From: an uncultured virus (IMG/VR IMGVR_UViG_3300050821_001073)
Taxonomy: Duplodnaviria > Heunggongvirae > Uroviricota > Caudoviricetes
Length of the DNA: 30,087 nucleotides
Strand: one strand, 5' to 3'
IMG/VR virus record: IMGVR_UViG_3300050821_001073
Under the pieces are notes generated by a model. That model was not told the origin of the DNA. It saw only the letters and a list, made by a program, of their open reading frames with translations, and ran no database searches. Position numbers and translations under genes: made by a program. This document shows, piece by piece, positions 508 through 4,388 of the stretch (its first letter is position 1; each line of letters begins with the position of its first letter).

Positions 508-560
508 ATGGCTTATACTCCTGCTGCAAACACTACCAACACCCTCCCGCAATCGACCGT
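508..560 (+). CDS. Major capsid protein exon 1 (MAYTPAANTTNTLPQST + GT of Val)
   Basis: ATG at 508 after AAGGGA. Joins exon 2 in frame (GT|C = Val) to give ...PQSTVKYYDAKFRENLKAQ, matching the N4-gp56-like N-terminal 'YYD' motif. Confidence 0.85.
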
Positions 561-769
561 TTTTACTGGCGGTCTTTAAATCTTTTCTAATTGACTTCAA
601 CGCTGAAATGCCAAGAAGGGCGAAGCCGAAAGGCACGCTGAGAGACTAAGCGAAAAGACACTTTTATGAGGAGTGATACGATAGTCCGAACATGTCAGAA
701 TAGTTCCATAATGACATGAAATTGACAGAAATGCTCAATTCCGGCATAGACATGCTGAGTAACAACTTG
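561..769 (+). ncRNA. Group I self-splicing intron 1 in MCP gene (209 nt, no ORF)
   Basis: P1 GACCGU(555-560)/GCGGUC(569-574) with U560-G569 wobble; P3 UCUUUUC(581-587)/GAAAAGA(652-658); P7 GACUA(644-648)/UAGUC(682-686); P8 659-675; three P9-region hairpins 691-757; terminal G769; P10 UACUG(564-568) with CAAGUA(770-775), one bulge; removal restores the frame. Confidence 0.9.
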
Positions 770-1616
770 CAAGTACTACGACGCGAAATTCCGTGAGAAT
801 TTGAAAGCTCAGACTCCTTTCGTGGCTTGTTCAGAGCGTTTGAACCTGCCCGTCCAGTCTGGTAACCAATATGAAATGTTCATGTACGTTCCGTTCGCTG
901 CCAACACGACTCAGGTCACCGAAGGCACCGTTGGAACGAGCATCACTGCTAACGTCCTGAACACGACTGCCACCATCGGCGAATACGCCGACTTCGCTAA
1001 CTTCTCTTCTTTGGCTCTCGCTACCGCGATTGACAACACCGTTGAGAACGTTGCCAAGGAAATGGCGTATCGTTTGGGCGAGTCGTTGTCCGCTGTGGTT
1101 CGCGCCACGGTTGACGGCGCTCCTTCGATTGATAGCTCGGTTCTCGTGAAACTGCCTGCGACTTCGTTGACGGCTTTCACGACCCTGTCCCTGTCCGCGA
1201 TTCGTAATGCGGTTCAGAGCTTGGCTGGCCGTGCAGTTCGTCCGTATGATGAAGCTACCAAGCTGTTCGGTGGCGTGATTCACCCGTTTGCCGTTGGTGA
1301 CGTTCTTGCTGACAACAGCAACAACAGCCCCATCGACATCGCGAAGCACACCTCCATTGGTCTGGCCAAGATGGAAGATCTTATCTCTACCGACCTGACT
1401 GAAATGATCGAATTCCCGTCTTCTGGCGTGGCGTTCTTCCAATCGCAGCTCGTCACCACGACTCCTAACTTCCAATCCGTGACCGGATTGACCGCTCTTC
1501 GCACCTATATCTTCGGGCGCGACGGCGTTTACAGCATCAAGCTTGGCGCACAGGGCGATACCGCTTATGGCGACGGCGAATGGCAGAACATAAAACCGTC
1601 CATAGTACAAAACGCT
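770..1616 (+). CDS. Major capsid protein exon 2 (N4-gp56-like, HK97 fold)
   Basis: Open frame KYYDAKFRENLKAQTPF...LPVQSGNQYEMFMYVP...TEGT...GEYADF...IHP...TYIFGRDG; strongly biased codon usage typical of a highly expressed gene. Confidence 0.85.
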
Positions 1617-2509
1617 AGAAACTTCGGTGTGGCGTCTGTAGGCTTAAATCTACAGTAAAAAATAAAGCAACTCTAATTGACTTGGAAGCTGAAATGCTAA
1701 CAGGGGGCAAGCTAACGCAGCCTGAACGACTAAACGAGTTGCATCCTTATAGGATATGTGATAGTCTAAACTTATGGAAAAAAGCACTTATATTGATGAA
1801 ACAGGAAACCGCTACGGAAGATTGATCGTGATCTCCAAAGCTGAAACTCTTAAAAAAGGAAACAAAACACTCGCGCAATGGAATTGCATTTGTGACTGCG
1901 GACAAGAACGCATCGCATTGGGTCATGTATTGCGGTCGGGTAAACTGCTTAGCTGTGGTTGTTTGAAGCGGGAACGTGCCGTGGAGAATTGCCAAAAAGG
2001 TACGGATGGACGTAAAGGTCTTCCCGCCTATAACAGCGTAGATGAGATTGGAAACATATACGGCAGATTAACAGTGATTGCTCAATTACCAACGAAGCAC
2101 AAACGTTCAAGATGGCGTTGTAAATGTGAATGTGGTAAAGAGAAGAATGTTACTGGAGGGTCTTTAAGATCCGGTAAGGTTCAAAGCTGTGGGTGTTTAT
2201 ATCGTGATGTCGATGCCTTTGAAAAGCGCAAACCACGCATTGTGGATTACAGACGAAATGCAAGGCAGAGAGATTACGAGTTTTTGATTTCAGAAGAAGA
2301 GTTTGAAGCTATTACTAGTTTGTCGTGCCATTATTGTGGGGAAATCGCTCCTAATGGAATAGACCGAATTGATAATAAAGTAGGATATGTCAAAGAGAAT
2401 TTAGTTCCTTGTTGTAGTTTATGCAATAGAATGAAACTAACTTTGACTACTGAAAGGTTCATCGAGCAGTGCAACAAGATCATTAACCATAAGAATAATA
2501 TTACGCTTG
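1617..2509 (+). ncRNA. Group I intron 2 in MCP gene (893 nt) with homing endonuclease ORF in the P9 region
   Basis: P1 ACGCU(1612-1616)/GGCGU(1631-1635) with U-G at the splice site; P2 1636-1655; P3 GCAACUC(1667-1673)/GAGUUGC(1736-1742); P7 GACUA(1728-1732)/UAGUC(1762-1766); P8 1743-1755; P10 GGUGU(1626-1630)/GCACC(2510-2514); terminal G2509. Confidence 0.9.
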
Positions 2510-2517
2510 GCACCTAG
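1774..2517 (+). CDS. Intron-encoded HNH-family homing endonuclease with two N-terminal Cys-rich repeats
   Basis: Two repeats GNxYGRLxVI...WxCxCxCG...LRSGKxxSCGC, then CHYCG...NGIDRIDNKVGYVKENLVPCCSLCNRMK (ββα-metal/HNH-like). AT-richer than the flanking exons. Confidence 0.85.
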   Translation: MEKSTYIDETGNRYGRLIVISKAETLKKGNKTLAQWNCICDCGQERIALGHVLRSGKLLSCGCLKRERAVENCQKGTDGRKGLPAYNSVDEIGNIYGRLTVIAQLPTKHKRSRWRCKCECGKEKNVTGGSLRSGKVQSCGCLYRDVDAFEKRKPRIVDYRRNARQRDYEFLISEEEFEAITSLSCHYCGEIAPNGIDRIDNKVGYVKENLVPCCSLCNRMKLTLTTERFIEQCNKIINHKNNITLGT

Positions 2518-2641
2518 CGTAGCGGACCCGGAAGGCCTGATCCCAGGCTGGACCGCTTATAAAGTGCACTTTACGACCTCTTTGGGAGCCGATCCGATCA
2601 TCAGGATTCGTCTCATCGACGCCGCGAGTGCGATCAGCTAA
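2510..2641 (+). CDS. Major capsid protein exon 3 (APSVADPEGLIPGWTAYKVHF...AIS*)
   Basis: 43 codons plus TAA, in frame after ...VQNA; contains the DP...GW..K C-terminal motif of N4-gp56-like MCPs; followed by a terminator. Confidence 0.85.
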   Translation, partial: APSVADPEGLIPGWTAYKVHFTTSLGADPIIRIRLIDAASAIS

Positions 2642-2675: not shown

Positions 2676-2701
2676 AGGGAGCCCTAACCGGCTCCCTTTT
2701 C
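2676..2701 (+). terminator. Rho-independent terminator after MCP
   Basis: AGGGAGCC-ctaacc-GGCTCCCT hairpin followed by TTT-CTATT. Confidence 0.75.
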
Positions 2702-2731: not shown

Positions 2732-3169
2732 ATGTTTGATTATATTTCTCAGGGCGTACCTACCGTCCAGTCACCCGCTGCACCGGCTCTATTGGCCGAT
2801 GTGGTAAACGGTCGTCTGTATGTCTCAACCGCTGCCGGTTGGACCAATGTCGCTTCTGGCGTTCAGCAGACCCTGTCCGCTAACGGTGCGATTTCGCCGA
2901 CTTCTTCGGCTACCTACGCGATCACCAAGACTTCTGCGGATCTTTTGACGCTTGCAGCTCCTACGGCTGCTGGTGTGAACATCACTGTGACTAGTGACTC
3001 AGCGTTCGCCCACACAATTACCGCTACTGGACTGATCCAGGACGGAACCACTGGTGGACCGCACAACGTTGCAACTTTTGCCGCGTTTCCTGGTGCGACC
3101 GTTCACTTCGTTTCAGCTCCTAGTTTGAAATGGAACGTTGTTTCCTTGCAGAACGTCGTAATCAGCTAA
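2732..3169 (+). CDS. Putative head decoration/fibre protein (short paralog of 3195)
   Basis: AAGGAG RBS; β-rich Thr/Ala protein; N- and C-termini similar to ORF 3195; immediately after MCP. Confidence 0.55.
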   Translation: MFDYISQGVPTVQSPAAPALLADVVNGRLYVSTAAGWTNVASGVQQTLSANGAISPTSSATYAITKTSADLLTLAAPTAAGVNITVTSDSAFAHTITATGLIQDGTTGGPHNVATFAAFPGATVHFVSAPSLKWNVVSLQNVVIS

Positions 3170-3194: not shown

Positions 3195-4388
3195 ATGGCG
3201 TATGATTATATAACACGTGGCGTACCCACGATTCCCGTGCCCGGTACGCCAGCTTTGGCTGTCGATATCGCTAATGATCTGCTTTATATTGGAAATCCGA
3301 CTACTGGTGGTTGGGTTCCTGCTGCTCCTGTAGCTGGACCTGCCACAGCAGTCAATCTTCCTGCTAGTAGTGCACCAACTGTTGGAACGGTTGCACAGTC
3401 TGGTGCTGCAATTCTAAGTACTTTTGGTACTGATAATCTATTTGTTGGTACTGGTAGCGGAAACTTTTCTCTTACTGGTAGTGATAATACTGGATTAGGA
3501 TTTGATGCTCTACATAGTCTCACTACTGCTACCAAGAATACTGCGGTAGGTTCAGGAGCATTACAATCCATTACAACTGAATTTGGAATATTCACGACTC
3601 CCACAGAGAACACTGCGGTAGGTTTTGATGCTTTAAATCTTTGTACAACATTTCAGAATGTGGCAGTTGGCTCACAAGCATTGAAAGTTGCAACTACTGG
3701 TGTTAAGAACACAGCATGTGGTTATAGTGCTCTTAAGGCACTGACTACCGGGGGCAATAATGCTGCTATAGGTCTTGGTGCAGGACAACAGATTACTACC
3801 GGAGCAAATAATACTACTATGGGTGCCAATGCAGGCATCGCAATTACTACTGGTAGTAATAACGTTTCTATTGGTCAGACTAATGATGTTGACACAGGAT
3901 CTAGGAATATCACAATAGGTGTTGGTTCATTTGTTCCAGATAGTACTGCTAGTAACCAGATGAGCATTGGCAATACTGTTTATGGTTCAGGTCTAAATGG
4001 TCCAGATACTGGTAGCATCGGAATCAATGTTCAAATTCCTACTAATACTTTGGATATATTAGGTGGAATTACTTTCAGTGGTTCATTGAATCCTTTAACC
4101 GCAATTGTAGCCAATGGAGCAGTTCCTGTTACTGGATCTGCTAATTATGTTGTCACTGTGGCTACGGCGCTTACGATTGCTGCCCCTTCAGTTGATGACA
4201 CTAGGATTGAGATTACTACATTCGACACAGCGACCCCAGTTCTTACCTTCACCGGAAATACTCTAAATAGTGGCTCAGCGGCAGTCGCTACGGCTCATTT
4301 TGCAGCATTCGCAGGGTCCAGTATTATCTTGGTTTCGCATACGGGAAAATGGAATGTCATTAGCCAAAATGCAGTGACCTTTGCATAA
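3195..4388 (+). CDS. Putative head fibre with internal NTAVG β-roll (trimeric adhesin head-like) repeats
   Basis: ~14-aa repeats (NTGLGFDAL, NTAVGSGAL, NTAVGFDAL, NVAVGSQAL, NTACGYSAL) between termini shared with ORF 2732. Confidence 0.65.
   Translation: MAYDYITRGVPTIPVPGTPALAVDIANDLLYIGNPTTGGWVPAAPVAGPATAVNLPASSAPTVGTVAQSGAAILSTFGTDNLFVGTGSGNFSLTGSDNTGLGFDALHSLTTATKNTAVGSGALQSITTEFGIFTTPTENTAVGFDALNLCTTFQNVAVGSQALKVATTGVKNTACGYSALKALTTGGNNAAIGLGAGQQITTGANNTTMGANAGIAITTGSNNVSIGQTNDVDTGSRNITIGVGSFVPDSTASNQMSIGNTVYGSGLNGPDTGSIGINVQIPTNTLDILGGITFSGSLNPLTAIVANGAVPVTGSANYVVTVATALTIAAPSVDDTRIEITTFDTATPVLTFTGNTLNSGSAAVATAHFAAFAGSSIILVSHTGKWNVISQNAVTFA

Follow-up and report, generated by a model that had tools for sequence, protein, structure and literature searches.

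The window analysed here is a stretch of DNA of 30,087 nucleotides (nt) from an uncultured member of the Caudoviricetes (IMG/VR record IMGVR_UViG_3300050821_001073). It stems from a soil podophage that has not been cultured and is a relative of Tunturiibacter phage Tunturi_3. Positions 508-2641 are its major capsid protein (MCP) gene, which very probably consists of three exons separated by two related group I introns (Table 1). Scripted excision of 561-769 and 1617-2509 leaves a frame of 1032 nt, comprised of 343 codons and a stop, in agreement with the coordinates proposed in a preliminary description of the locus. The features of the unspliced gene given there were also reproduced. The frame from the ATG at 508 ends at UAA 577-579, the frame of exon 2 runs into UAA 1656-1658, and the track of open reading frames (ORFs) shows, as had been stated, only a truncated piece of 285 amino acids (aa; 801-1658), together with a third piece (2507-2641) that ends the gene.

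Table 1. Features of the interrupted capsid gene and its surroundings. Paired strands of each helix are separated by a slash; R1 denotes the covariance model built for this intron family.
Feature	Position	Strand	Description
MCP exon 1	508..560	+	ATG at 508; 17 codons and 2 nt of codon 18; joined product aligns gap-free to residues 1-18 of Tunturi_3 gp6
Intron 1, group I without ORF	561..769	+	209 nt, in codon 18; R1 118.6 bits; in-frame stop 577-579; terminal G769
Intron 1 helices, P1 to P5	P1 555-560/569-574 (U560-G569), P3 581-587/652-658, P4 595-598/615-618, P5 602-603/610-611		
Intron 1 helices, P6 to P9	P6 619-622/636-639, P6a 625-627/632-634, P7 642,644-648/682-687, P8 659-662/672-675, P9 691-697/712-718		
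MCP exon 2	770..1616	+	from base 3 of codon 18 to codon 300; phrog_1357; TIGR04387 below cut-off; 79% identity to Tunturi_3
Intron 2, group I with endonuclease ORF	1617..2509	+	893 nt, between codons 300/301; R1 107.5 bits; stop 1656-1658; terminal G2509
Intron 2 helices, P1 to P4 and P10	P1 1612-1616/1631-1635 (U1616-G1631), P10 1626-1630/2510-2514, P2 1636-1641/1650-1655, P3 1667-1673/1736-1742, P4 1681-1684/1701-1704		
Intron 2 helices, P5 to P9	P5 1688-1689/1696-1697, P6 1705-1708/1720-1723, P7 1726,1728-1732/1762-1767, P8 1743-1747/1751-1755, P9 1771-1777/2487-2493		
HNH homing-endonuclease ORF, 247 aa	1774..2517	+	in P9 loop of intron 2; phrog_374 E 9.6e-32, phrog_1035 E 2.5e-16
MCP exon 3	2510..2641	+	codons 301-343 and stop; aligns to C-terminal 43 residues of Tunturi_3 gp6
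Terminator-like hairpin and T run	2676..2697	+	after MCP stop; 8-bp stem with 6 G-C pairs, then TTTTCTATT; consensus match only

The gene is identified as that of the major head protein from the similarity of exon 2 to phrog_1357 (E 3.7e-14, a profile of that name) and from the annotation of its counterpart in Tunturi_3 (PP885686.1). This phage gave the sole match among 50,697 phage records, with 79% identity across the whole of exon 2, and its gp6 is annotated as an uninterrupted "major head protein" of 343 aa. When compared with TIGR04387 (N4-gp56 capsid family), exon 2 scores 34.9 bits (residues 8-158, E 1e-8) and Tunturi_3 gp6 scores 37.4 bits (residues 11-190). Both values lie below the curated cut-off of 60 bits for membership over the full profile, and both matches are limited to the N-terminal half of the profile. 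Exon 3 alone has no TIGR04387 match, and the former description of N4-gp56-like motifs at both ends of the protein is not borne out. The Joint Genome Institute (JGI) applies the N4-gp56 family name to some homologs that are 74-80% identical, and in the ESM Atlas a homolog adjoins the clusters N4-gp56 capsid and Phage_capsid_3/4, at 0.98. A sequence search of the PDB with Tunturi_3 gp6 gave no match, and a PDB profile search of the capsid protein disclosed a single weak one ("B2 Capsid" 9d82, E 0.032). Pfam gave nothing significant for exon 2, for the neighbouring genes or for the HNH ORF (no family at E<=0.01 for the latter).

Alignment with intronless homologs, a check suggested in the preliminary description, shows collinearity across both junctions. 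The joined 343-aa product aligns with Tunturi_3 gp6 with zero gaps, including the two junctions PQSTV/KYYD and IVQNA/APSV. A search of a large protein collection gave 490 homologs at E<=1e-5. Among the best 120 of these 490, 105 are at least 340 aa long, and 75 are exactly 343 aa. The junction count was made on the 105 long homologs, leaving aside the 15 shorter ones, and all of them (105/105) are gap-free at both junctions (residues 8-28 and 290-311). The 15 short homologs among the 120 listed start near residues 21-24 or end near residues 292, 299, 304 or 313-314, which is how interrupted genes appear to a gene caller. Both insertion sites sit in near-invariant protein sequence, as would be expected of homing sites.

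Both inserts contain the core of a group I intron in the order P3-P4-P5-P6-P7-P3'-P8-P7', including the P3/P7 pseudoknot, and in both the 5' exon can pair with an internal guide in P1, the last pair of which, at the 5' splice site, is a U-G wobble (Table 1). Every listed helix forms by standard or G-U pairs when checked base by base, and P1 and P2 are also part of the minimum-energy fold; P2 is absent from intron 1. The conserved group I strands GAGACUAA and GAUAGUC are present in the intron family. Helix order and topology, the conserved strands, the U-G pair at P1, the terminal G and P9 together support the assignment of the inserts to group I. The pairings P1, P3, P7, P8 and P10, the U-G 5' splice site and the terminal G that had been proposed earlier were thus found in both introns, with the reservation that P10 is clean only in intron 2, where five clean pairs adjoin the P1 guide.

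Introns 1 and 2 align with each other over ~110 nt. A 23-base core pattern, composed of blocks common to both, occurs twice in the window and in 0 of 100 shuffles, and it detected 65 IMG/VR loci, reduced to 38 distinct cores. Variation among these cores delimits a P3 of 7 base pairs (bp), P4 with the strands CUUG/CAAG, a P5 that is short and closes a UGAAAU loop, P6 and its P6a hairpin, P7 built as G-bulge-GACUA/UAGUCC, and P8, while P3 and P7 cross to form a pseudoknot. In the first alignment (38 cores, MAFFT), 97.5% of 1169 cells are paired, compared to 33.8-41.0% when the partners are slid. Both sides have changed in 22/31 pairs, and the observed values were reached in 0/500 shuffles. Intron 1 itself has a compensatory C-G pair in P4 where 36/38 cores have G-C.

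The model R1 was used to gather copies outside the 23-base pattern, and revealed 94 matches in the 65 IMG/VR loci (L002-L066). The second alignment comprises 18 cores, of which 16 lie outside the pattern. Here 96.2% of the cells pair, and both sides have changed in 22/28 pairs, including pairs in P5 (CG 10 / GC 7), P4 (UA 10 / CG 8) and P7 (AU 16 / GC 2). A widespread family with compensatory changes implies selection on the fold. With filters off, R1 detects in the 30-kb window the two intron sites only. The nearest record, G001 (87% of sampled words common with the window), contains the same two introns with identical R1 scores. There was no R1 match in the Tunturi_3 genome (97.6 kb), and no match to intron 1 in a blastn search of the 50,697 phage records. 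A survey of 185,579 bacterial and archaeal genomes with the 23-base pattern gave five matches (two in Colwellia and one each in a Pseudomonadales metagenome-assembled genome, Legionella dresdenensis and Paenibacillus), which were dismissed as chance, none of them being found by R1 or Rfam.

Two soil metatranscriptome runs, X1 and X2, carry small shares of the stretch. One X1 contig, 161 nt long and with a depth of 5.3, is composed of 1559-1603, followed by TACAAAACGCT (= 1606-1616) and by 2510-2595, and is otherwise identical to the window. Exon 2 and exon 3 are joined in this molecule at exactly the predicted AACGCT/GCACCT (1616 to 2510), and the position of the joint is unambiguous. When both runs were compared with 450-2700 of the window, neither yielded contigs from inside the two introns, except for a 33-nt conserved stretch of a different intron. 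This stretch is located in an X1 contig of 332 nt, which matches the window at 578-610 only (the conserved P3-P5 stretch, with 3 differences) and has unlike sequence on both sides, and therefore represents a different member of the intron family in that RNA library.

Several observations weigh against interruption of the gene by two splicing group I introns. The Rfam model RF00028 (gathering score 50 bits), proposed earlier as a check whose failure would speak for refutation, found neither intron. There was no match in a gathering search of the whole window, and no group I match at E<=10 on 450-2750 (2.3 kb) or on 545-785 (241 nt), where only chance-level matches appeared (DLEU2_3, MicX, S15). 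P10 of intron 1 (564-568 with 770-775) is weak and requires a bulged A, and the minimum-energy fold of the whole intron 1 is not unusual (z = -1.5). The search pattern had fixed P5 and most of P7 in the first alignment, and covariation in these two helices is that of the smaller second set. In the RNA libraries, no contig or read of X1 or X2 bridges intron 1, where the junction ACCGT/CAAGTAC had been predicted earlier, and intron 2 is bridged in one contig. That contig carries adapter sequence at both ends, and is for this reason probably a single molecule or its PCR (polymerase chain reaction) copies. It is also missing the bases AG at 1604-1605, 11 nt before the exon joint, a gap that would throw off the reading frame; a single-molecule error or a variant allele are both possible. 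Furthermore, RNA libraries can hold DNA, and the contig could stem from an intronless allele of a co-occurring strain.

The result with RF00028 can be compared with that for a sister intron in G001, to which this model aligns over its full length with a score of 20 bits (E 0.005 in a small search). P3, P4, P5, P6, P8 and P9 of the alignment coincide with the helices assigned here, and so do the P7 strands AGACUAA and GAUAGUC. Since the sister intron aligns helix for helix, we attribute the failure to poor sensitivity of such a general model toward a compact family. It is not taken as a refutation, and the family-specific model is regarded as decisive.

An origin of the joined exon 2-exon 3 contig from an intronless allele, either as DNA carry-over or as its mRNA, is the alternative that fares best, although we consider it unlikely; if it is true, the contig gives no direct evidence of splicing here, yet the introns of the window may splice all the same. 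Such alleles are common. The sample of IMG/VR capsid loci compared with R1, the best 80 of 284 and biased toward intact genes, contains 7 with a match and 73 without one. The possible DNA content of the RNA libraries and the 2-nt deletion by which the contig departs from the window point in the same direction. On the other hand, the contig equals the window over 45 + 11 + 86 nt, whereas homologs found here without an intron show about 74-81% protein identity, and exon 3 of even the nearest record, G001, departs from that of the window (91.7% protein identity).

A very improbable explanation is that the inserts are decayed or non-splicing remnants, either in a capsid pseudogene of a defective phage or in a gene expressed as separate fragments. 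A non-splicing split gene associated with an HNH endonuclease has been documented in phages (PMC7344957), and the mobE-split nrdA of Aeromonas phage Aeh1 is expressed as separate fragments. The lack of RF00028 matches, the absence of reads across intron 1 and the deletion in the sole contig bridging intron 2 would also fit. Opposed to this, all core helices are intact in both introns and both exceed 100 bits with R1, while the open frame and conserved residues are kept in all three exons. Fragments of 17 and 43 residues would be unlikely to assemble into the capsid fold. The same arrangement is present in a second assembly (G001), and the compensatory changes throughout a widespread family imply selection on the fold. 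The chance that the inserts are some other intervening element is negligible: no point in favour was found, and the possibility was considered merely since Rfam calls no group I intron, while an intein is excluded by the in-frame stops in both inserts, a group II intron is opposed by the lack of a reverse-transcriptase ORF and of an Rfam group II match, translational bypass by insert lengths of 209 and 893 nt, far above the known 50-nt bypass in T4 gene 60, and all of them by a core topology and conserved GACUAA / GAUAGUC strands that are those of group I. The splitting of the capsid gene by two group I introns, as initially proposed, is supported by collinearity, the covarying core, splice-site features, the HNH ORF and the X1 contig.

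According to established group I chemistry, both introns would fold into the P3-P9 core, and in P1 the 5' exon would pair with the internal guide up to the U-G wobble. Guanosine bound in P7 would attack after that U, at the 5' splice site, and the released 5' exon would in turn attack behind the terminal G, the 3' exon being brought into line by P10. The product would be one 343-codon mRNA. We infer from this scheme that both introns are autocatalytic and that intron 1 is spliced. The suggestion that splicing serves as a control point for late expression did not find support, and it is superfluous for a mobile selfish element.

In addition to phrog_374, the ORF in intron 2 matches four further HNH or endonuclease PHROGs, and the motif CHYCG...IDRIDN...CNRMK is recognizable by eye. 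The ORF starts with an AUG that is part of the 5' strand of P9 and ends with a stop codon 8 nt inside exon 3. With the start codon buried in P9, translation of the ORF would be occluded in the folded precursor RNA, and the HNH protein would be made from it at a low level. A 100% identical copy of the protein is present in G001, and relatives with 35-41% identity are encoded in other introns of the family. Its probable targets for cleavage are capsid alleles of related phages that lack the intron, into which repair of the cut would copy it (homing).

In capsid genes, members of the R1 family are located at about residues 17/18, 22/23, 278, 291-292, 297, 300/301, 315-316 and 337. Positions in the relatives are approximate because the brute-force boundary search misplaces or misses sites: it is reliable only when both exons are long, left 7/33 sites without a solution, and put intron 1 of the window at 568 instead of 561. 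A further location of the family is the 5' part of portal genes, where two introns frequently stand in tandem, ~200-300 nt apart. Its members carry HNH (phrog_374) or GIY-YIG (phrog_314) ORFs, placed in the P8 or P9 loop. In two loci (L144:880-1560 and L128:850-1560), an intron lies between capsid codons 22/23, 14 nt from the first insertion site of the window, with an ORF in the P8 loop and a 7-bp P1 ending in U-G. Some family members, for example those at L012:1474-1580 and L047:1499-1609 (minus strand), follow the capsid stop codon at a distance of a few tens of bases, and are placed either at the very beginning of the following gene or in the intervening spacer. A tblastn search of the intron loci with the window's neighbouring proteins gave no match, and did not identify the host gene downstream of these stops.

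G001 contains a third intron of the family, the sister intron aligned by RF00028 (L069:1501-1614 and L070:1501-1704, both minus strand; R1 103 bits, RF00028 20 bits), ~3.6 kb upstream of intron 1 and outside the window, directly upstream of a long portal-like ORF. Beside it, and apparently outside the intron, is a GIY-YIG/NUMOD3 endonuclease ORF (L069 1807-2451, minus strand), and the two could represent a collaborative-homing pair. A different group I intron was observed in a related capsid gene at residues 187/188 (L012:209-926). It is detected by RF00028 (33.1 bits, E 3e-6), carries a LAGLIDADG-like ORF and is not matched by R1, and there are therefore at least two intron families in capsid genes of this clade.

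Downstream of the capsid gene, the two genes at 2732-3169 and 3195-4388 have two modules in common, one of them N-terminal (47% identity over 38 residues, E 4e-10) and the other C-terminal (39% identity over 95 residues, E 8e-5). For the longer one (3195-4388), the PHROGs matched are tail-spike and virion-structural families.

Three group I introns in one gene, orf142 of Staphylococcus phage Twort, are said to have been described by Landthaler and Shub in 1999. They reportedly belong to subgroup IA2 with P7.1/P7.2 and self-splice in vitro, whereas the family studied here has no such extra helices between P3' and P8. The main text of the Tunturi paper mentions introns 0 times, a count that refers to the main text, the supplementary annotation tables lying outside it and possibly bearing on the point.

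Group I introns in phage capsid genes are already known. It is a fair statement, made in the preliminary description, that characterised phage introns are fewer in late genes, although capsid-gene introns have been documented in LittleE and in crAss-like phages. In the Cluster J mycobacteriophage LittleE, splicing of the capsid-gene intron was proven by reverse transcription PCR and N-terminal protein sequencing (Pope et al. 2013, PMC3706429), whereas RNA support here comes from one metatranscriptome contig. Both systems have an intron in the major capsid gene of a tailed phage, with U ending the 5' exon and G ending the intron, and in both the intron encodes a homing endonuclease, while a relative of it that lacks an ORF is situated elsewhere in related genomes. 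LittleE has one intron, in contrast to two of one family in the same gene here, and its endonuclease is LAGLIDADG-like and encoded on the bottom strand, while that of the window is an HNH enzyme encoded on the same strand, in the P9 loop (PMC3706429).

In crAss-like phages of the Delta and Zeta groups, one MCP gene is found in five fragments (Yutin et al. 2021, PMC7886860). As in the case presented here, several group I introns interrupt one MCP gene of uncultured phages, and the fragmentation misleads gene callers. Those phages are gut phages of Bacteroidetes, unlike the soil phages studied here, whose cultured relative infects an acidobacterium, and their introns were recognised via endonuclease domains, whereas here the RNA core was defined with covariation (PMC7886860). 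Short group I introns of ~206 nt are reported from Jug jumbo phages, with splicing checked by metatranscriptome reads across the junctions (PMC12880540). Like the family described here, they are compact introns of ~200 nt, many per genome, in essential and structural genes, accompanied by stand-alone and intron-borne HNH and GIY-YIG endonucleases. Subtype covariance models already published (Selles Vidal et al. 2025, as cited in PMC12880540) served to detect the Jug introns, and the host genes named in the part of that report considered here are terL, nrdD and DNA polymerase, not MCP.

While the phenomenon itself is documented in other phages, what is added here is an uncatalogued and prolific intron family missed by standard models. 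Standard pipelines will not flag it, as the Rfam group I model misses the family of which R1 finds 94 copies. Gene callers truncate this marker gene, as illustrated by the 278-aa call for this phage in the protein collection and by the 15 short homologs among the 120 listed, and such truncation distorts capsid-based phylogeny and soil virome annotation. For the phage, the most abundant virion protein would depend on two RNA splicing events.

A broader proposal, which we regard as possible and put forward with considerable doubt, is that a compact intron family uncatalogued in Rfam has spread in Tunturi_3-like soil phages to many sites in two virion genes, with interchangeable endonuclease cassettes, and that the introns, beyond being selfish, act as weapons between phages, their endonucleases cutting intronless capsid or portal alleles of co-infecting relatives. 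A role of an intron endonuclease in phage-phage competition has been shown for phage PhiPA3 (PMC11620839). The cultured intronless relative Tunturi_3 makes homing and competition experiments feasible, and, if the introns do act as weapons, the clade would be a natural system for studying intron movement to new sites.

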